Below, piece after piece: positions 16,641 through 46,285 of a stretch of DNA of 64,000 nt (within the stretch, counting starts at the first letter, position 1; each line of letters begins with the position of its first letter). The DNA is from Phyllosticta citribraziliensis (Eukaryota): the NCBI RefSeq assembly GCF_038025025.1, contig NW_027117339.1:1798001-1862000 (forward strand). The letters are read 5' to 3'. Under the pieces are notes generated by a model. That model saw nothing but the letters and a program-made list of their open reading frames with translations. It was not told the origin of the DNA and did not search any database. Both the position numbers and the translations under genes were made by a program.

Positions 16641-17672
16641 AATCTCCATCTATGCATCATCATGTCGAAGAGCTCCTCTTTCGAGGCCACTTGCCAGCGT
16701 CCAGCTGGTAAACTGCTCATGAGTTCCAAGCAGCGCTGCTAGCACTCACTTCACAATCTTCGGCTAGGCAGGGAGGGGAGCAAAGTTCAATTGTGTTTTA
16801 TGCATGACACGGGGCTATTTTGGGCGATGACATGGGTCATTTTGCATGTCGAAACTTTGCATTTTGTCTGTACTGTTTCCTCTATTCGAGAGAGGCCCCC
16901 AACCGACCCTTGATGCTGAGGTTTCATTCTGTTGTTCCTCTGACGATTTCAAATGACTATTATGGCATGTAGGGACGGATGGAAAAAAAGGGGAGGTCCA
17001 GTGGCGAGGGAATGCGGTGGGGCCAGTGTGGTCAGTGATGGTGGAGGGCTGTGTGTTGGCTGGTTGTAGATGACCCCGGTCTATTCAAATGGAGAGGAAA
17101 ACATTCCAAGGAGATCGATGTACGCCGGCTCGGGAAGGGTGTTACTTCTTGAACAGTGAATTCACTTACTCCCTTGGCATCTCGGAAGCAACAGGCTGAT
17201 TTTCATCCAGTACGTGCGCGCCTACTGCTATCTCTGAAAAGTCTCGAAGCCTCTGCATCCGTGCTGACAGATCTGTGAAGTGTTACGGGCTCTACATCAT
17301 GTTTCAAGAAGGCTCCTTGATGTTCCTACCACGACAGGCATAGAGCCTATTGAATAACCACGACTTTTCATCCATTTGAAGAAGAGCAACCACGCTCTCC
17401 TCTACCCTCAACCCACGCAGCCGCCTTTGTTCCAGGCATTCCAGTGTGCCTCTTTGCAGTTTGAGCTCGTGCTCGTAGCAACTTCAGTCGATTTCGACGG
17501 CCCCAAATTTGCGAAGCCTGTGTTTTCCCTCCTGAGACCACAGACCGAGAAGAGTCTGGTTAGCTGATTTCAACTTCGGACCGAGAAATGATGTTGGGGC
17601 TGAAGTTTTTGACAAAGGTTCCAATAGACTGAGGTTTAAGCAGGCCGAGAATGGGCACACAAAGGAATGCCA

Positions 17673-29563: not shown

Positions 29564-30511
29564 ATTCAATGATATCACGACCATAGGGCTAGACCGGACC
29601 ATGAAGGAAACTGGACGTACGATGGGACGAATTTCGATCTGAGAGGGCTTGAAGGACCTCGGTATGGTAGAGATGAATGAAAAAGCAGATATCCCCTTCA
29701 TTCTCCGCTTGTTGCCGTGATTACTTTCTGGGCGCGCGGCAGTCTGGCCACGAGAAGTCCCCATGGCACGGTCGCGTCGAATTTGGTCTGTATGCTGACA
29801 TGGCGCGCAGGCAGACATGCGCGTTTTCCCTTTTCCCCTTTCCGTAACATGCTATTCCTCCTGCTTCCTGGATTGTCCGTCTGCATCGGAGCAGCGCGGC
29901 TCGACGTTGACCAGTCGACCGTGTTCAGTGCGGAAAACCTCGTGCGACCGAACAAAGACTTGACAATAGCTTGGCCAAGATTGGAATGCTGAGGTGTACT
30001 ATCAACCACTTCAGTAAAGCTTGACCGCGACAACATCAAGTCGCAAAACAAACAGATAGCGAAATAGACGCGCCACCATATTCAGCATATCCATCAGCTT
30101 TCTGAAATGCGTCCGCCAACAAATCGGGGTCTGTTCCATGCTCTCTCCTACCACCGCAGTTGTTCACATCTAGGGCTGAAACCTCCTGAGCATCCAAGAC
30201 ATACTGCTTGGCACAAAGCAGTCTCACGGTCAAACGCATTCCTCTCAAGAAGAAGCGGCCCTGAGTCCCGTAAGGAGCGACGCGTGAAGAACACCTCCAA
30301 GACCATGCATTCCAAGATACAGTAAACAACCGCAAGCGGGCTTATAAGCTGCGTGGCCATCTTCGCAGCCTGCTCCACCAACTGTCTTTAATTTTCCATT
30401 GCTTCCGCTTGGTTTGGCCGTCCGTCACTCATTGTCTGAATTGTCGCTCCTTCGCGAAAAGCTCCCTCTGTTTCTTCACCTTTCCCTACACACACTCCTA
30501 ATATACCCCAA

Positions 30512-31438
30512 ATGAGGACAACAGCCGTGGCAGTGCTGGCGGTCGTTGCTGGCGCCTCTGCGCAAAGCCTCGTCCCCAGCTACATCACACACGTCTACTA
30601 TGACGACTGTGTCTCGTCCATGAGCACTCCAGTCGTTACCGAAACCGACGAGGTCATCATCACCACATGCCCTTCGTGCACGCACAAGAGCACGCCTTCA
30701 GCAACGGCCAGCGCATCGGGAGTATCGCTTACCCCTATTCCCACTTTGCACACCACCGTCTACACGACATCCTACGTAACCCTCTGCTCGACTGGCCTGG
30801 TGCCAAATACCTACACCGTCACGGAAACTTGCTCTGGAGAAACCCCAACGTGGCCAATGACAACCTCCAATTACCTCCCGCCTGGGTTCACCACTACCGT
30901 TACCGTTTGTACCGTTTGCCACAGCGATCATCCTACCACGGTCACTCTCACCGTGCCTTGCGACACCACTCCAGCCTCCTCGCCGGCTACTTCTCCCACT
31001 AGCAGCGCCTCAGGCTCTTCTGGTTCAGCATCCCCGGCGTCATCGTCGTCGTCTTCACCAACTGCGTCGGCGACTGCCAGCGGACTCAGTAGATCCCCAT
31101 CTGCTTCCAGCTCGTCGTCTGCTTCCAGCTCTCCATCTGCTTCGAGCGGTGCTACCTCTGCTCTCGAGGACGTGACCACTACCACCACTGTCTGCGCCAA
31201 GTGTTCGCACAGCAGCACAAGCGGAGCTTCTGGAAGCATCACCGGCAGCTCCAATGGCGTCTCTCAATCAGTCTCGACGCCCACCACGCCGACAACGCCA
31301 ACCACGCCTACCACGACCTTGACGCCCACCTCTTCCGGTGTCGTCATGGCGACCGGCGCCGCCGCAGCGCACTTCCCCGACTGGAGGGCCTCGGCTGGCT
31401 TCTTGGGCGCTGTCGCGGCGGGTGCCATATTCTTGTAA
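30512..31438 (+). CDS. GPI-anchored Ser/Thr-rich cell wall protein
   Basis: Signal peptide, CxxC/Thr-rich repeats, Ser/Thr/Pro stalk and hydrophobic C-terminal GPI-type signal (ATGAAAA...FLGAVAAGAIFL). Confidence 0.88.
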   Translation: MRTTAVAVLAVVAGASAQSLVPSYITHVYYDDCVSSMSTPVVTETDEVIITTCPSCTHKSTPSATASASGVSLTPIPTLHTTVYTTSYVTLCSTGLVPNTYTVTETCSGETPTWPMTTSNYLPPGFTTTVTVCTVCHSDHPTTVTLTVPCDTTPASSPATSPTSSASGSSGSASPASSSSSSPTASATASGLSRSPSASSSSSASSSPSASSGATSALEDVTTTTTVCAKCSHSSTSGASGSITGSSNGVSQSVSTPTTPTTPTTPTTTLTPTSSGVVMATGAAAAHFPDWRASAGFLGAVAAGAIFL

Positions 31439-32380
31439 AAGAGCGACGAAAGTCGTGGCCTTTATGACGATATGACTACTAGGATAAAGTGAGTGCTCTT
31501 CCCCTCCTGCAGAACCGCGAATCATCTTTTGGTCTAACCATTACGCGTTCAGGCTTGGAAAATCTGGCATACTCGCGGTGTGGCGCTCGGAGCTCCTTTT
31601 TTTGTTGTCTTGTCCACTCACACTGTCTTTACCTTTCTGGAGGAATCGATTGGTTACCGCCCGCCTCAAGCTTTTTGGAACTCTTTTACATCTTAATTCA
31701 GACAATGCCTTACCTTCTTCCAATGGTATATTCATAGATAATCTCTTTCTCTCCGTTCATCGTTTTTCGTTTCGCCACACGGACGAAGGCGAGTTTGACT
31801 GGGCTGTGTTCAGGCCTAGCGCCTATGTAATCGTAATTTTGTTGCCTGCAATACTTTGTGGCGGCAAGAAAGCCAACAGAATGCTCCTCAGTTTTCGGAC
31901 TGCCTGCATCGTGACTTGCTCATCGCGTGAGGTTCCTACCTGAAGTAGTTGATTCGCCGTCGCTCCCGAACGTAGCCTCCTATCTCAGATCAGTGCCATC
32001 TCAAGTACGAGAAATCCATCGGATCGGGGCAAAAACCTGCGGCGTTCGATATCGGTCTCTTCGAGACTACTGCTCTGAGGGATTCAGATGTTCCTCGCCT
32101 TGTCATCCAAAAGCTTGAAACTCACGTCGACTGCTTCAGGGGTTTTCCGCATCTCTTCGACATCTCACCTCAACTTCTCAAAAAAGTGAATCGACCTAAC
32201 CCGCCCTGTATCGATCTCCGGGACTGCTCAAACTCTCTTGATCTCGTCACAGTGCGCGACACATCCTTCCACCCCAACCATCACCACAACACCATAATTA
32301 CCGTACACAGACACTCGCTACCAAACTACGGCAGCCCTCGCTACCAAGCAAAAAGGGAGCAGCAAAAAGTTTAACAGCAG

Positions 32381-32466
32381 TGGGTCGGCTAGGATTTGAA
32401 CCTAGAACTTGCTGCGACTTGGTTTTTGTTGGCCGCAACACGTGTTTTCCTATACACTCCCAACCC
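32381..32466 (-). ncRNA. tRNA-like RNA copy A (atypical or pseudo tRNA; GCC at the anticodon position if a 14-nt intron is assumed)
   Basis: Acceptor GGGTTGG/CCGACCC+A, D-stem GTGT/ACAC, T-arm CTAGG-TTCAAAT-CCTAG (B box), 9-bp anticodon-position stem, TTTTT terminator ~12 nt downstream. Confidence 0.75.
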
Positions 32467-32985
32467 TTCGGTCATGGGAACGAGCTGTATAGTGTGGTAC
32501 TGGCGGGTGTACTTCTTAAATTAAAGAAAACTGAATCGCGGTTCTCTTGTCGCCACAGGTAAGTGACCTTCCAGCAACGCTTTTTCTTCATTTGTGATTG
32601 TTGTACTTTCATTTCGTGCTCCATTTCATCTGATTCTTCCTCGCGGGGAGTGATTCCACCAGAAAACAAGACACTCAGTTTACGATTACACCTCTCATCA
32701 AGCATCCATTTCATCGCCACTTCTGCCTCGCTTTACTTCTCTCTCGTGGTGATGATCTGGCCCGTGTATCGTTGGTTCCTTCCAAGGTTGACAATAGGGG
32801 AGAAAGGGAGCGATCATGGGAGCTTCAAGATGCCAAAAAAGTTCCCCAAAAGTTGACGCAAAGCATTTTCTGGACCCCAGGGTCTTCCAGAGATCCCTGA
32901 CCCACCCAACTACCACGCTCGGTACCAAGCTTTCTCACCAGGGCAAATCAAAAGAATGAGATGGCAAAAGGTTTACCAGCAGTGC

Positions 32986-33072
32986 TAGGTTGACCATGAC
33001 TTGAACCTGAGACTCGTTGCGGCTTGGTTGGTGTTGACCGCGACACATGTTTTCCACACACACCTCCAACCC
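32986..33072 (-). ncRNA. tRNA-like RNA copy B (GTC at the anticodon position)
   Basis: Acceptor GGGTTGG/TCAACCT+A, D-stem GTGT/ACAT, T-arm TCAGG-TTCAAGT-CATGG, extended stem TGTCGCGGT/GCCGCAACG, downstream TTTT, upstream TTTATAAA. Confidence 0.65.
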
Positions 33073-33903
33073 CGTCATGGGAACGCTGTATAGTAGGATA
33101 CTGGCGAATTTCTTTATAAATTGACGAAGAATTATCATCTGGCACTGCAAATTGCAGTCTCCTAGTCGCAAAAGATAAAAGTCTGGTTTTTCGAATCCTC
33201 GAGCATAGCGCGAAGCCCCTGAATCAATACTCGAGGTTTTAAAGGATGCTCCTTAACCAACCTTGACTCCAGTGTGTGGGACTCTCCCCGTGATTCTAAA
33301 AACTCACTCGACTGCATTGTTATTCCTCGACATTTATTGACACCAATTGGTAATGCACTTCGCTTTCCATAAACCTTCGACACGCGGCCTTTCTCCTCAT
33401 AGCCTCCAGACCATGCCACGCGGAGCAACATAAAGGTTTTTTCTCCAAAAATAAAGCGACATTCTTTGTTGATTACACAGTGGCGCTGCGACACATGATG
33501 GTCAAGCTTTTTCTGGAACAATGAGAACAAAGTGAGTCAGAAGATCCGACACAGTCGCAGTATATATTCACCCATGCCCAGATTTTTCGTCGCCCAATCG
33601 TCAATTCTATTCTGTTTGTTCATTCGAGAGACGTCTACTTCCTTCGTTGTAATTTCTCTCAAGCTGGAACTTGATCACCACACCACCTTCGTTTCGAGTA
33701 CATAGGTCCCTTGGACTGCTTCGATTCGCACCGTACACTAATATAGTGAGGACTGCCACCTTTTATACCCATCTACATTCGTTTCTGCTCTGGAGAACAC
33801 ACTGCAGCTTTTACCCCCCCAAAGCATCCGAGAAGAAACCAAAAAGCAAAACTTCAAAGAAGTCCGAGAAAGGAGAGAAGGCGAACTTTGGCAAATTAAA
33901 GTA

Positions 33904-36537
33904 ATGCCGCAACATAATCAGCAACCACACCACGTGCGCCACTTGCCGGCCGAGGCAGATAGACTGCAAGACACCGTTTCGGCCGCCGTCCACGCCGCTC
34001 GCGCTGCCTCGTCACGCTCAACTCCAACACCAGCGTCTGCTGCGACTCGACCCCGACCCTCCGACGACAAGACGTCGACCTTTGCCCAGCGACACGCTGA
34101 CTTCCGCAGTTTCGCACCTCATCAACAGCACCGGCAACGACCAGCCGCATCCGGGTCAGCGTCGGGGTCCAGTTCGCTGAAGAAGTTCCTCGCCGAGTTC
34201 AAAGAGACGTATCGCGCGGCGCCGGAGAACGACACAGCGGTCCTGAGCCGCGAGGTGCGCGAGTGGTATCGCGATCGCAAGGAGGGGAAGAAGGAAAATG
34301 TCGCGGCGCAGGTGAGGGCGCACGTTCAACTGCAGCAGCAGCAGGAGGAAGAGGCACAGAGGCTTTTGCGCGTGCAAGAAGAGCAGTATAGGCAACAGCA
34401 GGAGCTGCTGCAGCACCAACAGCGATTGGTCATCGAAAAGCAGGCGTCGGTGGCACCGAGGATCGAAGTGACAGAGGCGCCGGACGAGGAGGACTGGCGC
34501 AGCGGGAGAGCAGCGCCCTCGCCTCCAGAGCAGTTTTTCGACTTTGTTGTCAGGGAGCGAGCGACGGAGAGTTCAAAGTCGACGGCGTCTGATGCTGGCG
34601 TCACTGTGTCCACAGATGCTGCGAAATATCACAGTCCTCCTGAAGAGCTGCGCCCTTGCACGCAGGGGTACCGTCAAGATGATGATCTCGATCGACCATC
34701 AGAACATGGCGCCGCCGTGTGCAACAAAACCGATTACAAAATTCGCGCAGCTCCTCGAGCCGGCCGCCTGCTCTACGCATCCGAGCGAATCTGCTACGGA
34801 CCCAACGAGCAGCCGCCCCAAAGGCCCGCGCAGCCCGACGACCTCGAAGTGCTCAAGTCCAAGATCCAAGACATCAAGACAGACATCATGGAGGGGCGAC
34901 AAAGGCACAAAGCCGCCAAAGCCGCGCGGCGGCTGGCCGAATCCGAGAACAAAGAAACCGAAGCGCGCGAGAAGTGGCGGCGGGAGATGAAGACACGAAT
35001 CGGAGGGCCAGTCCTGCTCGTCGCGGGCGAAGAGAGGATTGGCATTTCAGGCGGCGCGAGGCAGAGTCTGGACGAGTTGTCGCCCGTTCGCTCGCCCGTG
35101 TCGCCGCTGAGACGCCACAGCTCGCCTGCTGTTTCGCCTGTCGTTGCGAGGCCTTTTGCGCCCCCTGGACACGTCCTCATCGTCCCCCAGGTCATTCCGT
35201 CACCAGTTGACAGCAACCGCAGATCCTCGCCGCCAGCCTTGTACGCGACTCACGCGGCGCGCTTTACGCAGTGGGACGACTTTGTCAATCCGCGTCCGAC
35301 TCCACCCACTCCCCCTGTCCTGCCCCCAGCGCCCCCTGGCACTGCGTCGTCGTCCATCATCAACACCACTCGCACGACGCAATCCACAACACGACAAGCA
35401 CCTTCGGTATGGACTCCTCCAGCGTCTTCCAAGTCGACTTTTTCTTCCACCTCGATGACCTCTTCCAAAGCGGCCTTCGCCTCCATCGCCTTCAAGCCCA
35501 CGCTCCCTAAGCTCTTTACTCGCGGCATCCATCTTCCACGGCACCACCATGCATCCAGCGCTTCTAGCGGCAGCCACTCGGGAGCCTCGTCATTTGGCTG
35601 TCGTGGCATCAGCGCTGGCGCCGAGGCAAACGGTGTGGCGGCCATGATGTTGCGCGCGGCGCGGGCGTCGGTCGTCCAGCAGCAGGAACAGCGCCGGGAA
35701 AGCCCCAGGGCAAAGAAAGACGGTGGATTTCGTAGTCCTCTGTCCCCGATCCAGCGCGTGAGTCCGCTGGCCGTGGAGTTTGGAGGTGAGCGGAACAGCA
35801 GCAGCAGCAGTGTGAGTGATATAGAGGCGGACGAGGACCTGGAGCGGACGCAAAGCCGCTACAGCGTCATGGCAGCCGTGCCGTCGCCGCTGAATGTCAG
35901 GAAGACGGCGACGACGCCGTTGGTGGAGCGTCGGGTTCCTCGTCATGATTATGATCATCATCATCAACATCATCATCATGGCGAGGAGCGCTACGATTCG
36001 ATGCTCTCGCCCTCTTCCCCTTCGCACAACCGTGGAGGTCACAATGATACCTCGCGCGCTGTCTCCACCTTCAGCCGGCCGTCGTGGTGGACGTGGGAGT
36101 CGTCGGCATCGATTTCACCAGAGTCGTCGCCGTCGCTGCCTCACCACAACAACAACAACAACAACAGCAACAGCACACTATCCCAGAAGCAGGCCAAGGC
36201 GTGCGACTCGGACTCGGACTCGGAATCGCTGTACACAGCACCGCCGCCGCCCCGCCAAAGAGCTGACAATGGCGAGGAACCGCGGCAGCAGTCGTACATT
36301 CCACCGCGCGCGAATTGGACGACCGACTCGCTCAAGACTTCAATCGACCCTTCGACAATCGCCTCGTCCTCTTCAGCTTCGACTTCGTCCACGTACCCCA
36401 CAAGCAATAGCAGCATCGGCAGCGGCAGTGACGCCACCGGCGGCGCCACGGCCCAAGGAGTCAAGGAGAAGACGCGCTTCTGGGATGATGTGAGAAGGGG
36501 ATTACGGCCGTCGAATGCGTCGTTTGCGCGGAGATGA
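33904..36537 (+). CDS. Hypothetical low-complexity protein (877 aa; coiled-coil N-half, Ser/Pro/His/Asn-rich disordered C-half)
   Basis: Single long ORF with poly-Q, poly-H and poly-N tracts and many SP motifs. No domain recognised. Confidence 0.75.
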   Translation: MPQHNQQPHHVRHLPAEADRLQDTVSAAVHAARAASSRSTPTPASAATRPRPSDDKTSTFAQRHADFRSFAPHQQHRQRPAASGSASGSSSLKKFLAEFKETYRAAPENDTAVLSREVREWYRDRKEGKKENVAAQVRAHVQLQQQQEEEAQRLLRVQEEQYRQQQELLQHQQRLVIEKQASVAPRIEVTEAPDEEDWRSGRAAPSPPEQFFDFVVRERATESSKSTASDAGVTVSTDAAKYHSPPEELRPCTQGYRQDDDLDRPSEHGAAVCNKTDYKIRAAPRAGRLLYASERICYGPNEQPPQRPAQPDDLEVLKSKIQDIKTDIMEGRQRHKAAKAARRLAESENKETEAREKWRREMKTRIGGPVLLVAGEERIGISGGARQSLDELSPVRSPVSPLRRHSSPAVSPVVARPFAPPGHVLIVPQVIPSPVDSNRRSSPPALYATHAARFTQWDDFVNPRPTPPTPPVLPPAPPGTASSSIINTTRTTQSTTRQAPSVWTPPASSKSTFSSTSMTSSKAAFASIAFKPTLPKLFTRGIHLPRHHHASSASSGSHSGASSFGCRGISAGAEANGVAAMMLRAARASVVQQQEQRRESPRAKKDGGFRSPLSPIQRVSPLAVEFGGERNSSSSSVSDIEADEDLERTQSRYSVMAAVPSPLNVRKTATTPLVERRVPRHDYDHHHQHHHHGEERYDSMLSPSSPSHNRGGHNDTSRAVSTFSRPSWWTWESSASISPESSPSLPHHNNNNNNSNSTLSQKQAKACDSDSDSESLYTAPPPPRQRADNGEEPRQQSYIPPRANWTTDSLKTSIDPSTIASSSSASTSSTYPTSNSSIGSGSDATGGATAQGVKEKTRFWDDVRRGLRPSNASFARR

Positions 36538-41898: not shown

Positions 41899-44800
41899 TC
41901 ACTCCTCCATGACATCCCCGTTGGTCTCGGAGCTCTCCTCATCATCCCCCTCGGATCCCCCTGCTACTGGTGCCGCTGCCGATGCGCCACCACGACCACC
42001 ACCACCACCATTGCCCGTCTCGACGCTCTGCTGCACATCATCCATGGCCTCTTCGAGATCCTCTTCCGACTCCTCGGGCACCGGGCTGATGCCGTTTTCC
42101 CGTGGATGAAACGGTTTCGCCCGAGGCGTGACATCTGGGTCGCCGTGGTCCGATGCGTCGTCGCCGTCGAGCCCCAACATGGCCCTGCGCTCCGCTTCCA
42201 CCTGGTTCACAGCCGTCTGCCGCGCAAGCTTCACAATCTCCTCGAACCAAAAGTCGGCCCGTGTCGACGATACCACGCTCTGCAGCTCGTTGTCGTCCTG
42301 GATGTTGTCATTGATTATTGGATCGCGCAGGTCCTCCGATGGGAACCGCGCCTCGAGCTCTGCCGGCCGGCAGCCCGCGTCAATGACCTCGCTCGGGGCC
42401 AGAATCTGGACATGGGGATTTTCGTTCCAGAAACCTATACCAATTGGTTAGCAATCATGGATTCTCAGCCTGAAACCCGCACCCCGTTTCAACGTTCCAA
42501 CAAGGGGATTCGTCGACTCCACTCACCATTTCTGAACCCTTGAAGCAGAAGTTTCCACGTTACCGAGTTTTCCACAGTACTGCGCGTCTGCTCGTCGCCT
42601 TGCGTCGCCGTATTGTTGATGACGGCCCAATTGTCACTCAAGAATACCCTTTTCCACGCCAACTTCAGCGCTCCTTCCCAAGTCTGCTTGTCCATCAGTC
42701 CTGCGGACACGGCCAGCGCTTCAAACGCCATAAACTTGAGGTTCCGGCTAATGTCGTGGGCTCTTCCTGGTTCGTGGCAAGTGGTGTCCATCAATGTCAA
42801 GACATCAATCAGCAGGCCAGAATCAACCACCCTGTGTGCTATAATCTCCTCGAAGCCGCGCTTGAGAACCTGGCATAGAGCGGGCCTGTCCTTGGTGAAC
42901 AATACGCCGTAGTCCATCATGACGAGGTCTATGGCGCTATCGTCATCGAGCGCTCCATCAACCGTGCCCTTGATATGCTTGTAAATCTTGTCCTGAATCT
43001 CACCAAGCTCGAGTTCCGCGTCGCAGCGAGCAAGCTGCTCGGTTGGCTTGGGAATGGCTTCCGCTTGGCCTTCTGCGTCGGCAGCGAGAAGCGTCAGTTT
43101 AGCCAGAGACACTTCCACCTTCTTGCCCCAGGCTCGCGTCTCCTGGGAGGTGCCCACGTGCAGCAGCGCCTGGCTGGCCGATGCAAAGTCGCTCTCGCCC
43201 AAAACGTCGTTAATCCAGCTCAGCTTGGCGAAATTGGGATCGCTGCGCAGGAACTTGGTGAGCATCGACTGCCCTACGCCTCGCTTGTCCAGCATGAGCG
43301 CAGACCTGCGTGTCGCAATGTGACTGGCATACAGTGCGTCCGCCCAAGCCTGGCCGAACTTGTTGAAGTAGCCGCGAATGCGTTGCTCGAGCTTCCTCAT
43401 CGACACTGCAAAGTGCCGCTCCTCGTCTTCCGTTGCCGACGCGCCGTGCTCTTCTTTCAAGAATGACAGCTCGTCCCACGTCAAGTCGACGAGGGCCACC
43501 ATGTCTCTGAGTCTCTCGGCGATTGTCATGCCAGGGTCCGCCATGCCAATTTTCGTGAGGGCCGTGATTTGTTGGTACCGGACTTTGGTTTCGAATTCAC
43601 GTTTGAGGCTCTCTCCAGAGGCTCGCACCTTCTCATCCGACTGGGCCAGGCACCACCGGAATCTCTCCATGTGAAGCTGACAGCAAAGCTTGACAAGGCG
43701 CGGGTTGTCAGCTGCCACCTTTTTGGCAAAAGGAATCTCTCCGTGCTCCTCGTAGATCTTGAAGACAATTTCTCTTGCAATGTCGACGAGCTGACGGGAG
43801 CAATTGACCAGGTTGTGGTTGGCTGTCCACGGCTGAGGCAAATCAGCGTATCCCGTCGTCAGAATGTTGTAGTCAAGTTCCTCGCCCTCCAGGCCATAGT
43901 CCTGTAGATGGTCCCGCCGGAAAACGTAGGCCCTTTCGAGCGAGTTCAGGAAAACATCGTCGGCCTCGCTGACCAGAAGCATGATCTGCTCAATGGTCCT
44001 CGTGCCTTCAGCGTAAATCTCTTTGATAGTCAGCGAGGCCCAAGGAACAATGAGCATCATCCTCGAGGCGTCGCGGACGAAGAATTGGCGAACTGGATCC
44101 AGCTCTCCGTGTTCTGGTCGAAGCTCCGTCTTGTATCGTTCATGAAGGACGGTGATGAGCTCTTCCAAGAGCGGCTTCTGATTGACCTCGTACTTCAGAC
44201 GATCCTCGTAGTATTCCCAAATGCCAGCTGCAGCCGTCATCTTTTCGGCGTTCCAGAGAAGGTTCCATTTTCCAGCTCGCGAGATTGGTGGGTAATTTGC
44301 CTTCAAGTGACGTGCAAGGCTGTCAAGTGCCGACGCTCTAAATGCGATTTGTTGGGCCAAGGAGGCAATGACTATGGGAACGTGTTCCGAAGCCGAATCG
44401 AGAACCTCTCTGCTGAGCTCAAGGGCTGCCGCCTCGACCTCTTCCACATCAAAAGCAAGCTCGGGCTTTGCAGAAAAGTCGAATATGCTGTCAGGGCTGC
44501 TGCCAAAGAAAACAGCCTGCTCGATCCTGCTCTTTGCTGTGACTCGTGTCTTCTCAAAATCAGATCCAGGCTCCGGTGTTGAAATCCGGATCGGACCAAC
44601 GCCGCTGGCAAAAACAATACAGCTAGCTTGTTTTGACTTGCGACTCGACTCCTCCAACACAAATCCAACAAAGCGAATTTTTCTGTCTTGCCGCAAGTAT
44701 AGCACGTCTTGAAATGGTTTCGGCGGGAGTCCTTCGTCCACGGTCAGTTGCATGTCCGGAGTTTCGGTACGTCTTGCCAGCGAATTGATGACCACAGCGT

Positions 44801-46285
44801 CTTTGAAAACGACGAACGCCGTGTGCTCTGGAGGAGGAACGAGCAGTTTTGCCGTCTCTGGTGCCTGTGTAGAGCTTCCAGAATAGGTATCCAATGCCAG
44901 TGTTCTCTCGATTATGGCCGCGTTGTTGGCCAGGTCCATCTCGACAAGAGCATAATTGACATTGTTCGGCGTGAGGACTGCCACGAGTGCCAGGATACTC
45001 GTGCTTGGTGGTGCCGTCGGGTCGCTGACCTCGTTTCCCTTTGACCTTGACCGCAGAATGGAGAAGTCCAGTACCTTTGTGGTTATAGACGAGCGCACTC
45101 CGAGGACTGAGATGCCTTGCAGTGAGGTGAGGATCTGCTCGCGCGCATCGATTTCCGACTTGAGAGAATTGTTGCCAGACCAGCTGAGATCCCAGAGTTG
45201 AAAGGTTCCAGATCCAGTACCAATGACAACCTCGAGCTGTCCCTTCAAGGGCGATGGCCGGACCTTGACCGCTGCCACGTCCTTGTTCCACCCGCTGCCC
45301 GAGATGATGCTCCTAAGCCCACCAAAGAAGCCAACAGATCCATTTTGCGATGAGCTCCGAAGGAATTGGACACTGATTTGTGGCCGGCCCTGAGAGTCCC
45401 TGACTCTAAGTTGCGCCGTCCGCCCAGTGCTGAAGACGAGAATGAAGCCAGCTTGTTCAGCATCCACAAGATCAACAACATGCTCACCCGAGAGCATGGA
45501 GCCGATTGATCCCTCGATACCCTGTCGACGCTGCTGGAATAGGCTAAGCGACTCGGCGCTGTCCACATTCTCCCAAAACTTGATTTCTCCATTGGTCGGG
45601 TGGATAACAACCAATCCGAGGTCACCAGTCGGGCCAGCGTTGACAACGGAGCCCACTGGAAGTGGATCTGATCGTTTGGACTGAAAGGGAAGCTGCAGGG
45701 TGTGCGATGAAGCGGTGGTTGCGGCGGGCGAGGTGTAGTCCCAGACGTAGGCATACTCGTGAGTGATGGCGACGGCAAAGGGACTTGAAGTCAAGGCAAA
45801 GGTCCGGTGAGCTTCTACGCAAGCGTCAGTGCGGGGGCAGCGCGTTTATTCGAGGCGCATACCATGGGGGTTGAGGCGAAGACGCTCTGGGAGGCTTGGG
45901 AGCTGCTTGAAGGTATAATTGGGCGACTTGGTCTGCAAAACACGTCAGTAAGCCATCATGGAGCGATGCACCTGTGACGGACCAGAATCGAAGCACCGTC
46001 GATTTTCCGCGCAAGGGGAGCGGAGGGCTTCTTCTCCCGCAGCGGAATCTCGTGGCGCAACGCGGACCGCCTCTTTTCGTCACCGTTGACGGCGTGGCCA
46101 TTGAGAGCCACAGCTTCCTTGTTGATCTTTGCTGTGTTCGAGGGGTCTTGGAAGGTGGTTGGAGATATCTTGCTGCGCTTCCGCTCGGGCTGGTTCTTTG
46201 CTGAGTCGGAGTCGTGTCGCTGGCGTCTTCGGGGATTTCGCGCAGAGCCATGAACACCATGGAAGGAAGCTTCTGGCGAAAACAT
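41899..46285 (-). CDS. NUP133: Nucleoporin Nup133
   Basis: MFSPEAS...RNPRRRQR start, beta-propeller-like N-half (YAYVWDY, IKFWENV), AKSRIEQAVFFG, KLSWINDV, KKVEVSLAKL. Introns near 45985-45930, 45870-45815 and 42525-42440. Confidence 0.9.

Follow-up and report, generated by a model that had tools for sequence, protein, structure and literature searches.

Two tRNA-shaped units lie in tandem on the minus strand of the window, a 64,000-nt stretch of the Phyllosticta citribraziliensis genome. We give about an even chance to the full reading set out here: that the units are diverged copies of one module, descended from the LTRs of an ancient TRIM of the Helenus type, and that the lower-coordinate copy is maintained by selection as the gene of a non-decoding RNA while the upper copy decays. 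Below, copy 1 is the lower-coordinate unit and copy 2 the upper one (copy B of an earlier note on this DNA).

Two Tandem Units Are Copies of One Module

The features discussed in the text are the following.

32381..32466, minus strand: copy 1 body, an 86-nt tRNA-shaped RNA gene (start 32466, end 32381)
32467..32528, minus strand: copy 1 upstream block, a probable promoter or leader, which aligns with the copy 2 block
32350..32380, minus strand: copy 1 trailer and T-runs, CTGCTGTTAAAC, with T5 at 32368-32364 and a second T5 at 32354-32350
32337..32346, minus strand: primer-binding-site (PBS)-like motif TGGTAGCGAG after copy 1, exact 10-mer
32314..32323, minus strand: second TGGTAGCGAG after copy 1, exact, 23 nt past the first
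32529..32917, minus strand: spacer between the units, a candidate TRIM internal region, purine-rich at about 32640-32578
32986..33072, minus strand: copy 2 body, an 87-nt diverged paralog (start 33072, end 32986)
33073..33128, minus strand: copy 2 upstream block, with AATTTATAAAG, CGCCAGTATCC and CTATACAGCGTTCCCATGAC
32964..32985, minus strand: copy 2 trailer, GCACTGCTGGTAAAC and T4 at 32969-32966
32918..32927, minus strand: PBS-like motif TGGTACCGAG after copy 2, one mismatch to TGGTAGCGAG

The earlier note had placed two minus-strand copies about 605 bp apart and judged them roughly three-quarters identical. Our measurements agree: the starts are 606 bp apart, and the bodies differ by 21 substitutions and one indel over 87 columns (about 75% identity). 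Similarity extends beyond the bodies, as 33128-32964 aligns with 32528-32362 at 74.9% over 171 columns (E 2.6e-24), with a local alignment score of 128, where 200 shuffles reached no more than 30. The repeated module, about 170-200 nt long, consists of an upstream block of about 60 nt, the tRNA-shaped body, and a T-run. In the upstream block of copy 1, an AT-rich TTTAATTTAAG is found near -57..-47, CGCCAGTACC near -43, and CTATACAGCTCGTTCCCATGAC at 32492-32471. The conserved upstream block and the downstream oligo-T described previously are both present, with T5 occurring twice after copy 1 and only T4 after copy 2; the two trailers can be aligned up to the first T-run of copy 1. The T5 runs after copy 1 are probable Pol III terminators.

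Flank similarities outside this core did not rise above those of shuffled sequences (17/200 for the part 3' of the T-run, scored alone, and 53/200), and no alignment of the spacer with the other flanks was obtained. A third copy of the module was not found in the 64-kb window, where a covariance model matched just copies 1 and 2. Neither leader-trailer pairing nor leader hairpins were conserved between the copies. Faint colinear matches were seen past the core on both sides: TTA(T/C)C..GCGAC upstream, and 32842-32825 versus 32187-32170 downstream.

A metagenome scan with a pattern spanning the D loop to the 9-bp rod returned 0 loci. A pattern from the loop to the T arm returned four loci with 33-42% GC, which we read as chance matches because the surrounding sequence has no similarity to the unit. 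Literature searches yielded no account of such an RNA and, for the 10-mer TGGTAGCGAG, only unrelated primer listings.

A Cloverleaf with an Extended Rod Is Intact in Copy 1

The 7-bp acceptor stem, discriminator A, 4-bp D stem, and T arm with B box reported earlier are all present; in both copies the stems measure 7 (acceptor), 4 (D), 9 (rod), and 5 bp (T). Copy 1 has GG in the D loop, and its anticodon arm is replaced by the 9-bp rod with a 13-nt CA-rich loop, CAACAAAAACCAA; the rod loop of copy 2 is CAACACCAACCAA. The T loops are TTCAAAT (copy 1) and TTCAAGT (copy 2), and the elbow features of tRNA, G18 G19 and a TTCRANY T loop, are found in both. U8 and U33 are indeed absent, position 8 being G in copy 1 and A in copy 2, and position 33 being G in both. 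The B box GGTTCAA(A/G)TC has two sites in the window, both in these units, though the 10-mer alone is not above chance, with at least two matches in 42 of 100 shuffles.

Standard pairs occupy 48 of 50 pair cells, compared with 34-46% in a control with the partners slid. When the 25 pairs of copy 1 are set against those of copy 2, 13 are invariant, 9 carry one-sided changes and are still paired, 1 is changed on both sides, and 2 are broken. These counts bear out the earlier observation that most inter-copy differences keep pairing and that one true double change is present, a U-A/C-G exchange in the T stem. Likewise, copy 2 has just the two stem mismatches ascribed to it: C.A in the 9-bp stem (33042/33018) and G.A in the T stem (33007/32997). 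The unbulged 9-bp stem, claimed for both copies, holds for copy 1 but is interrupted in copy 2 by the C.A mismatch.

Despite about 25% divergence from its paralog, copy 1 has 0/25 pairs broken. On the window alone, the pair-preserving changes between the copies give a weak structure signal (P 0.048). When the states listed for the relatives are used, the paralogs differ by 10 stem transitions with 0 broken pairs, an outcome that random placement of 10 stem transitions gives with P 0.011. Copy 1 is predicted to adopt the cloverleaf at its MFE of -31.6 kcal/mol (z -3.7/-3.9), and this fold takes up a share of 0.63 of the ensemble. For copy 2, the cloverleaf is predicted at -14.0 kcal/mol versus an MFE of -19.4 kcal/mol, with an ensemble share of about 1e-5.

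Copy 1 Is under Purifying Selection, while Copy 2 Decays

The window was compared with contigs of related organisms, 3 of the 6 sequencing runs listed, none of them an RNA run, containing part of the stretch. The same tandem locus is present in contigs of two related organisms. In one of them (organism B), there is at least 1 difference in the 126 nt of 32381-32506, that is, the copy 1 body plus 40 upstream nt, versus at least 26 in the spacer, over 273 nt (Fisher p 4.5e-4); these counts are of differences listed and may be undercounts inside the unit. Conservative whole-record counts for the same organism are 4/141 versus 82/856 (p 0.0055). None of the differences listed against organism B falls in the copy 1 upstream segment 32467-32506. 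Within the copy 1 body, the sole change among the differences listed against related contigs is U.G to U-A, and wherever a stem difference from the relatives is listed (5/5), the relatives have a Watson-Crick pair. We conclude that the lower copy, together with its 40 upstream nt, is kept under purifying selection. Organism B carries at least two versions of the pair, the second with a spacer of 311 nt compared with 440 nt, as well as low-depth contigs.

Copy 2 carries four derived changes in this genome; two break a pair, and two convert G-C to G.U. Contigs of the relatives have the pairing base at 32993, 32997, 33010, and 33018; these copy 2 states are among the differences listed, and the relatives may carry further ones. 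RIP, which acts in a CpA/TpG sequence context, was considered as the source of the copy 2 changes and rejected, as 0 of 3 transitions lie in that context. The upper copy is decaying in this genome. The proposal that a whole family is kept by selection on shape stands for copy 1 and falls for copy 2; our claim of selection is limited to one copy here because the other has four derived changes and no longer favors the cloverleaf.

Copy 1 Is Very Probably Non-decoding

At default settings, ARAGORN called neither unit. With introns allowed and a relaxed threshold (-ps90), it called copy 1 only, as a Gly-GCC gene interrupted at 37/38 by a 14-nt intron, i(38,14), a call that agrees with an intron-containing pre-tRNA by position only. 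Two whole-window Rfam runs gave no match at either unit. In a search of 1.1 kb with lax filters, copy 1 matched the tRNA model (RF00005) at 37.5 bits (gathering score 29), with the anticodon arm aligned as a 27-nt insertion where the model has 13; copy 2 remained unmatched at E up to 10. The Rfam comparison, which the earlier note had proposed, thus did not mark the units as ordinary tRNAs. Both copies form a 9-bp stem and a 13-nt loop with G33 rather than a 5-bp anticodon stem and a 7-nt loop with U33 and purine 37. The 3' splice-site bulge, said to be absent, is missing from the predicted MFE and centroid structures of copy 1, which place the site inside an unbroken 9-bp helix (share 0.63). 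Three further candidates were rejected by eye: tRNA-Sec (no TCA), a BHB-type intron (no bulges), and alternative intron sites giving U33 (one T in the 21-nt loop region).

Strong conservation of the lower copy, together with listed stem changes in the relatives that restore or keep pairing, leads us to regard it as a selected, structured, and very probably non-decoding Pol III-type gene. A SINE head, one of the origins suggested earlier, is rejected because about 60 nt 5' of the RNA start belongs to the repeat and the terminator comes at once, with a T-run 12-15 nt past the head.

PBS-like Motifs Suggest an LTR-Retroelement Origin

The origins previously considered were incomplete, as they missed a PBS-like motif 3' of each unit, which points to an LTR-retroelement (TRIM). 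The two exact TGGTAGCGAG matches that the window contains lie shortly 3' of copy 1, and the motif after copy 2 has one mismatch. In organism B, the place of the second TGGTAGCGAG is taken by TGGTAGCGGG, as read from a loose-end consensus. The 10-mer is the complement of an initiator-type tRNA 3' end, ...CTCGCTACCA, initiator tRNAs being assigned by the A1:U72 rule; the PBS reading rests on this rule and on rust-fungus elements, and the host's own initiator tRNA may differ. Over both strands (128 kb) there are 10 occurrences of the universal core TGGTAGC, which corresponds to a chance of about 0.005 per given 60-nt stretch. In the accessible part of Kojima 2024 (PMC10886601), the internal regions of Helenus-5_PGr and Helenus-7_PTrit begin with the same 10 nt, TGGTAGCGAG. 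The presence of the motif after each unit suggests that the units derive from tRNA-bearing LTRs.

Other retroelement hallmarks were sought at the locus. TG..CA termini are absent. The boundary combinations tried gave 18 candidate 5-bp target duplications, none of them with TG or CA, where chance predicts about 17. The lower unit is not bordered by a polypurine tract; the purine-rich segment at about 32640-32578 does not reach it, and there is no G-run like those at the ends of the Helenus internal regions described in the accessible text. Priming at the downstream motif by the tRNA-like 3' end itself was also considered, and rejected because the two are not complementary.

Proposed Origin and Expression

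We propose that the units most likely originated as the two LTRs of an ancient Helenus-type TRIM, a small LTR retroelement with LTRs bearing a tRNA-like Pol III unit. Its insertion would precede the separation of this lineage from those of two or more related organisms. In the module, a conserved upstream block precedes the tRNA-shaped gene, whose A-box-like and B-box-like sequences are internal promoter elements, and a T-run follows. TFIIIC would recognize the B box, which is good, and the A box, which is weak; TFIIIB would occupy the upstream block, which is conserved and includes a TATA-like CTATACAG; and Pol III would terminate at T5. The acceptor, T arm, and elbow are intact and would be accepted by RNase P and RNase Z as well as by the CCA-adding enzyme, giving an RNA of about 89 nt; transcription, Pol III use, processing, and CCA addition of the units are all predictions from sequence. 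Such an RNA would be unable to decode, as a continuous 9-bp helix, capped by a 13-nt CA-rich loop, locks up both the anticodon loop and the would-be intron, and position 33 is G. It might serve as a tRNA decoy or a small-RNA source, or the locus might be just a Pol III-bound site. The more specific proposal, that a Helenus-like TRIM repeat was domesticated in a Phyllosticta-like ascomycete lineage to give a conserved, Pol III-made, tRNA-shaped RNA that has a 9-bp rod and CA-rich loop as its anticodon arm and would undergo tRNA-like processing yet work outside decoding, is offered tentatively and is possible rather than probable.

Alternative Explanations

We consider it unlikely that the locus is a purely cellular, tandemly duplicated tRNA-like ncRNA gene with no retroelement involved, TGGTAGCGAG being there by chance or in another role. 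Such a gene would fit the lack of TG..CA ends, target duplication, and adjoining polypurine tract, the strong conservation of copy 1 and its upstream block, and the PBS-like motif 3' of both units, where a simple LTR-internal-LTR arrangement predicts one after the 5' LTR only. The faint colinear flank matches would be the expected remnant of an old duplication of about 600 bp, with constraint centered on the gene; these matches, however, are not above shuffles (17/200, 53/200). The motif, moreover, has the place and form expected of an initiator-tRNA PBS (chance of the 7-nt core about 0.005 per unit), and its 10 nt match those of Helenus primer-binding sites exactly in the accessible part of PMC10886601. 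Two or more versions of the pair are also present in organism B. A neutral relic, made of decaying LTRs or tRNA pseudogenes, is quite unlikely. In its favor, copy 2 has two broken pairs and four derived changes that weaken pairing, and P is 0.048 when structure is tested with the window only. The apparent conservation of copy 1 would then come from differences missing among those listed, paralog mix-up, or gene conversion among copies: the counts are of differences listed, and in organism B the unit is covered by several contigs, the orthology of each being uncertain. Whole-record counts still differ (4/141 versus 82/856, p 0.0055), however, copy 1 has kept 25/25 pairs after about 25% paralog divergence, and its sole listed change turns U.G into U-A.

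That the units are ordinary intron-containing tRNA genes, Gly-GCC and Asp-GUC, spliced at 37/38 and decoding, is in our estimate very unlikely. The Rfam score of copy 1 (37.5 bits, above the 29-bit gathering score) and the relaxed ARAGORN call of Gly-GCC, with its 14-nt intron in the canonical position, speak for them, and a working tRNA gene would show purifying selection. The copy 1 loop C-G-GCC-A presumably differs from the usual Gly-GCC loop at position 33 only, and copy 2, like yeast tRNA-Asp, has G10.U25; discriminator A and G38, on the other hand, are presumably ill-fitting for Asp. Against decoding stand G33, G8/A8, and a 3' splice site within a continuous unbulged helix in 63% of the predicted ensemble. 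Default ARAGORN and both whole-window Rfam runs missed the units, the copies share acceptor stem and discriminator A yet differ in "anticodon," and the 40-nt upstream block is as conserved as the body, which is unusual in tRNA genes.

Significance and Comparison with Known Systems

Units of this kind are called intron-bearing Gly-GCC tRNA genes by relaxed finders and are missed by default Rfam filters; therefore, tRNA gene counts in fungal annotations can be inflated or distorted. Distorted counts from such units are reported for rust fungi (PMC10886601, section 3.5). Should the proposed origin be correct, tRNA-bearing TRIMs would be extended from Basidiomycota to Ascomycota, in the first such report from Ascomycota. 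Expression of the lower copy, if it occurs, would make this a clean natural example in which a tRNA-like unit carried by a retroelement has become a structured RNA maintained by the host.

mascRNA and the herpesvirus tRNA-like RNAs are processed by tRNA enzymes and do not decode; they are animal or viral, come from other precursors, and have short anticodon arms. The units share with them an intact acceptor, T arm, and elbow with an altered anticodon arm, so that end-processing without decoding is presumably to be expected, although the arm is extended here rather than short. With intron-containing pre-tRNAs, as described in the accessible part of Yoshihisa 2014 (PMC4090602), the units share a 14-nt insertion one base 3' of the would-be anticodon, pairing of the first anticodon bases with the insertion, the cloverleaf, the two Pol III promoter boxes (A and B), and a terminal oligo-T. 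Unlike those pre-tRNAs, they have no 3' splice-site bulge, C32-G38 and three more pairs making the 9-bp helix continuous, and they have G33, no U8, and an "anticodon" that differs between near-identical paralogs.

Cassandra TRIMs of plants, to judge from their description in the accessible text of PMC10886601, carry 5S-rRNA-like Pol III units in their LTRs. The likeness lies in an LTR-borne small-RNA-like unit that is independently transcribable by Pol III, which for the unit here is a prediction; the Cassandra unit, in contrast, is 5S-derived and ours tRNA-derived. Helenus elements (TRIMp3) are listed, among fungi, for Basidiomycota only (Table 1 of the same paper, Kojima 2024), whereas the host here is an ascomycete. 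A protein-atlas hint of a basidiomycete host was rejected, as the Nup133-like protein matched Phyllosticta proteins with 96, 91, and 80% identity. As far as the accessible text describes Helenus, our locus also differs in lacking TG..CA ends, a 5-bp target duplication, and a G-rich polypurine tract, in having a PBS-like motif after both repeats, in repeats that are just 75% alike, in an A box much weaker than in Helenus consensus sequences, and in one repeat that looks selected, while Helenus copies are treated as selfish. The same text gives Helenus LTRs of 116-270 nt in elements of 311-1263 bp, each LTR having a short upstream part, a tRNA-like part, and a T-rich tail, followed by the PBS. 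Our locus has this layout, with direct repeats of about 180-250 nt, a tRNA-like unit near the 3' end of each, a short T-rich tail, and the PBS-like motif next to it; its overall length of about 800 bp falls inside the Helenus range, and in both cases the tRNA-like part is implausible as a working tRNA.

A repeated module built around a tRNA-shaped body

The two tRNA-shaped minus-strand copies described in the earlier note were confirmed. Their bodies, here called copy 1 (lower coordinates) and copy 2 (upper), start 606 bp apart and are separated by 21 substitutions plus a single indel over 87 columns. The only notable direct match in a self-BLAST of 30500-34500, a strong one, pairs 33128-32964 with 32528-32362 (74.9% over 171 columns, E 2.6e-24). 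The likeness extends beyond the bodies (local score 128 vs at most 30 in 200 shuffles); the spacers flanking the two units could not be aligned to each other. The repeated module consists of about 60 nt of upstream sequence, the body, a trailer of 12-15 nt and a T-run:

32466 to 32381, minus strand: copy 1 body, 86 nt
33072 to 32986, minus strand: copy 2 body, 87 nt
About 60 nt 5' of the body, minus strand: upstream part with an AT-rich box, CGCCAGTA(C/T)C and CTATACAG..CGTTCCCATGAC
12-15 nt 3' of the body, minus strand: trailer CTGCTG(T/G)TAAAC, then the T-run

T5 occurs twice after copy 1, and only T4 after copy 2. From both bodies we made a covariance model, as had been suggested earlier, and searched the 64-kb window with it, filters off. 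It recovered only copy 1 and copy 2 (107 and 101 bits), with no third family member in the window (next match 10.6 bits, E 1).

Predicted fold of the two bodies

The predicted minimum free energy structure of copy 1 is a perfect cloverleaf (-31.6 kcal/mol, 63% of the ensemble), with a folding z of -3.7 against dinucleotide and -3.9 against mononucleotide shuffles. Positions 8 and 33 are both G, and the parts are as follows:

Acceptor stem: 7 bp, discriminator A
D stem: 4 bp, GG in the loop
T stem: 5 bp, loop TTCAAAT
Replacement of the anticodon arm: unbroken 9-bp helix, 13-nt loop CAACAAAAACCAA

Copy 2 follows the same plan, but one pair of its 9-bp helix is mismatched (C.A), as is one of its T stem (G.A). 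Hence the unbulged 9-bp stem ascribed to both copies is found in copy 1 and is interrupted in copy 2. The copy 2 cloverleaf is predicted at -14.0 kcal/mol vs -19.4 for a different, minimum free energy fold, and makes up about 1e-5 of the ensemble. Standard pairs occupy 48 of the 50 pair cells of both copies, vs 34-46% with the partners shifted by 1-3 columns. Thirteen of the 25 pairs are invariant, nine have a one-sided change and are still paired, one has a two-sided change and two are broken, both in copy 2.

A decoding tRNA is an unlikely reading

With a relaxed threshold, ARAGORN calls copy 1 as Gly-GCC with a 14-nt intron at 37/38, and the Rfam tRNA model matches it at 37.5 bits (gathering score 29), though only in a search of 1.1 kb under lax filters. 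The same ARAGORN run makes four other calls where Rfam searches show no tRNA, a still laxer setting makes 122 calls in the window, and the Rfam alignment passes over the anticodon arm of copy 1 as a 27-nt insertion; copy 2 has no match to the model at E up to 10 in the 1.1-kb search. In the window, ARAGORN found no tRNA by default or with introns allowed at the default threshold, Rfam at gathering thresholds reported nothing, and a whole-window Rfam E-value search missed copy 1 again. Taking the 14 nt as an intron would put the 3' splice site within a continuous helix of the predicted fold, with no bulge, and would make the spliced copy 1 loop C-G-GCC-A-G, with G33. Moreover, the copies share acceptor stem and discriminator and differ in would-be anticodon (GCC vs GTC). 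On all this evidence, we regard it as improbable that either unit is a decoding tRNA.

Whether Rfam reports 32381-32466 as a tRNA depends only on the length searched: it is reported in 1.1 kb and filtered out in both 64-kb searches. Units like copy 1 could therefore go missing, or appear inconsistently, in genome annotation.

Conservation of the locus and of pairing

Contigs from three DNA sequencing runs were compared with 32200-33300. Pieces from a metagenome were identical to the window. Organism A yielded one syntenic contig (32210-33287; about 87% identity in the longest aligned piece, where 72 of 569 letters differ). In organism B we found a syntenic contig at 32442-33297 (82 mismatches and 13 gaps over 856 nt), another at 32331-32471 (4 mismatches and one gap over 141 nt) and a further one (32442-33122) in which a copy-2-like unit (17 differences over 177 nt) is connected to a 5' part resembling copy 1 (one over 64 nt). 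In the second version of the pair, the 440-nt spacer gives way to 311 letters of unrelated sequence. Judging from these contigs, the tandem pair exists in organism B in two versions or more, and the copy number of the family seems to vary among relatives. Since the locus is syntenic in organisms A and B, the comparison places the tandem pair before their split from the window organism. Organism B also has several contigs of low depth, among them ones whose copy 1 trailer passes into a long tract rich in T.

Among the differences listed for organism B (a listing that, judged by its order, is complete up to 32801), the copy 1 body with 40 upstream nt (32381-32506) carries one, vs 26 in the spacer at 32529-32801 (Fisher p 4.5e-4; Poisson expectation 8e-5). 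Whole-record counts, which are independent of listing order, are 4/141 vs 82/856 (p 0.0055). The 40 upstream nt are as conserved as the body among the differences listed, and the sole copy 1 change there (32386) turns U5.G68 into U5-A68. We conclude that, among the differences listed, copy 1 and its upstream block appear to be under purifying selection.

Every related contig departs from the window at four stem positions of copy 2 (minus-strand letters, window > relatives):

32993: T > C, G.U > G-C
32997: A > C, G.A > G-C
33010: T > C, U.G > C-G
33018: A > G, C.A > C-G

The relatives hold the pairing base each time; therefore window copy 2 is the one that gained two pair-breaking and two pair-weakening changes, and by this comparison it is decaying in the window genome. 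With the relatives' states, the paralogs show, among the differences listed, 10 stem transitions at 8 pairs, two pairs two-sided and none broken; ten transitions placed at random on the copy 1 stems break no pair with P 0.011 (window alone, 12 transitions and one transversion with two broken pairs: P 0.048). We conclude that the shape has probably been kept in the family, among the differences listed, and the changes, which preserve pairing, speak for a role of the RNA fold itself and not of promoter boxes alone. Part of the earlier reading, a selected non-decoding tRNA mimic family, is borne out: copy 1 fits it, and copy 2 is decaying here. The suggested "SINE head" does not fit.

Proposed transcript

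The B box GGTTCAAATCC is close to consensus and the A box region GAGTGTATAGG is poor. That the 40 upstream nt match the body in conservation fits a Pol III unit dependent on the B box plus elements further upstream, for example the TATA-like CTATACAG, which lies 20-25 nt ahead of the body; T5 would end transcription. The acceptor stem, T arm and D/T elbow serve as recognition features for RNase P, RNase Z and the CCA-adding enzyme. Because these features are intact, an RNA of about 89 nt would be expected; it would not decode, since it has no anticodon loop. It could serve as a decoy for tRNA-binding factors or a small-RNA source, and the unit could be a template-end or promoter module of a retroelement or a Pol III-bound chromatin site.

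Host genes and other matches

Genes in the window are eukaryotic: a Nup133-type nucleoporin, an adaptin, a fungal-type kinase and an intron-split proteasome ATPase. The nucleoporin (42489-45497, minus strand) is 96, 91 and 80% identical to Phyllosticta proteins and about 62% to others of Botryosphaeriales; by sequence, the host is a Phyllosticta-like ascomycete. A Basidiomycota affinity of this protein (commonest phylum of its nearest protein Atlas cluster) was rejected on the 96% identity to Phyllosticta (Ascomycota); the Atlas taxon line is misleading here. Four long ORFs, flanking the tRNA-shaped locus or elsewhere in the window, match no Pfam family at E 0.001:

33904-36537, plus strand: 877 aa
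28676-29818, minus strand: 380 aa
30512-31438, plus strand: 308 aa
9025-10686, plus strand: 553 aa

At 17075-17105 (minus strand), the Rfam model of the TMV upstream pseudoknot domain scores below threshold (25.3 bits vs 34, E 0.048), most likely by chance. Probably also chance are two C/D-box snoRNA-like matches in the spacer, both far below gathering score, although GATGAA/TGATGA and CTGA motifs are present, spanning only about 45 nt:

32673-32718 and 32549-32593, minus strand: sR49 (17.1 bits, E 1.4) and GlsR14 (13.1 bits, E 3.7)

A primer-binding-site-like motif and comparison with retroelements

In the window, the 10-mer TGGTAGCGAG has two exact occurrences, each shortly 3' of copy 1:

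32346-32337, minus strand: exact, directly after the second T5 of copy 1
32323-32314, minus strand: exact, 3' of copy 1
32927-32918, minus strand: one mismatch, 3' of copy 2

It is complementary to a tRNA 3' end ...CTCGCT-A-CCA, i.e., with U at position 72 and A at 73, which we take to be an initiator-tRNA signature. Its core TGGTAGC is present 10 times in the window, counting both strands, so the probability that one lies within 60 nt of a given unit in the correct orientation is about 0.005. The leader stretch CTCGTTCCCA (32471-32480, the best conserved of the leader) could pair with TGGTAGCGAG at 32337-32346 (8 Watson-Crick pairs, one G.U and one mismatch in copy 1; 6 of 10 positions in copy 2). 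The chance of so good a match anywhere in the leader is about 0.02; the pairing resembles self-priming retroelements, a weak lead.

Helenus elements are TRIMs, small LTR retroelements described as having LTRs of 116-270 nt that carry a tRNA-like sequence and are followed by primer-binding site, internal region and polypurine tract, with 5-bp target duplications in fungi (Kojima, 2024, PMC10886601). The module is not a clean member, because TG..CA ends were not found, 5-bp duplications are at chance level (18 candidates vs 17 expected; 0/18 with TG or CA), no polypurine tract adjoins the lower unit (copy 1), and the likeness downstream of the T-runs, motif included, taken alone is not above shuffles (17/200). 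Unlike in a simple LTR element, the motif lies 3' of both units, which would need a tandem LTR-internal-LTR-internal form with an end lost, or another history. Further, the host is an ascomycete, whereas Table 1 of that paper lists fungal Helenus for Basidiomycota only.

The order of parts (upstream part, tRNA-like part, short T-rich tail) is nevertheless the same as in the Helenus LTRs described there. In its supplementary sequences, TGGTAGCGAG is the exact start of the internal regions of Helenus-5_PGr and Helenus-7_PTrit (tggtagcgag), and others open with tggtagca.. (PMC10886601). An LTR origin of the module is likely, as the best single account of the repeat, its fairly sharp core, the motif and the second organism B version; this LTR-retroelement origin is new information beyond the earlier reading.
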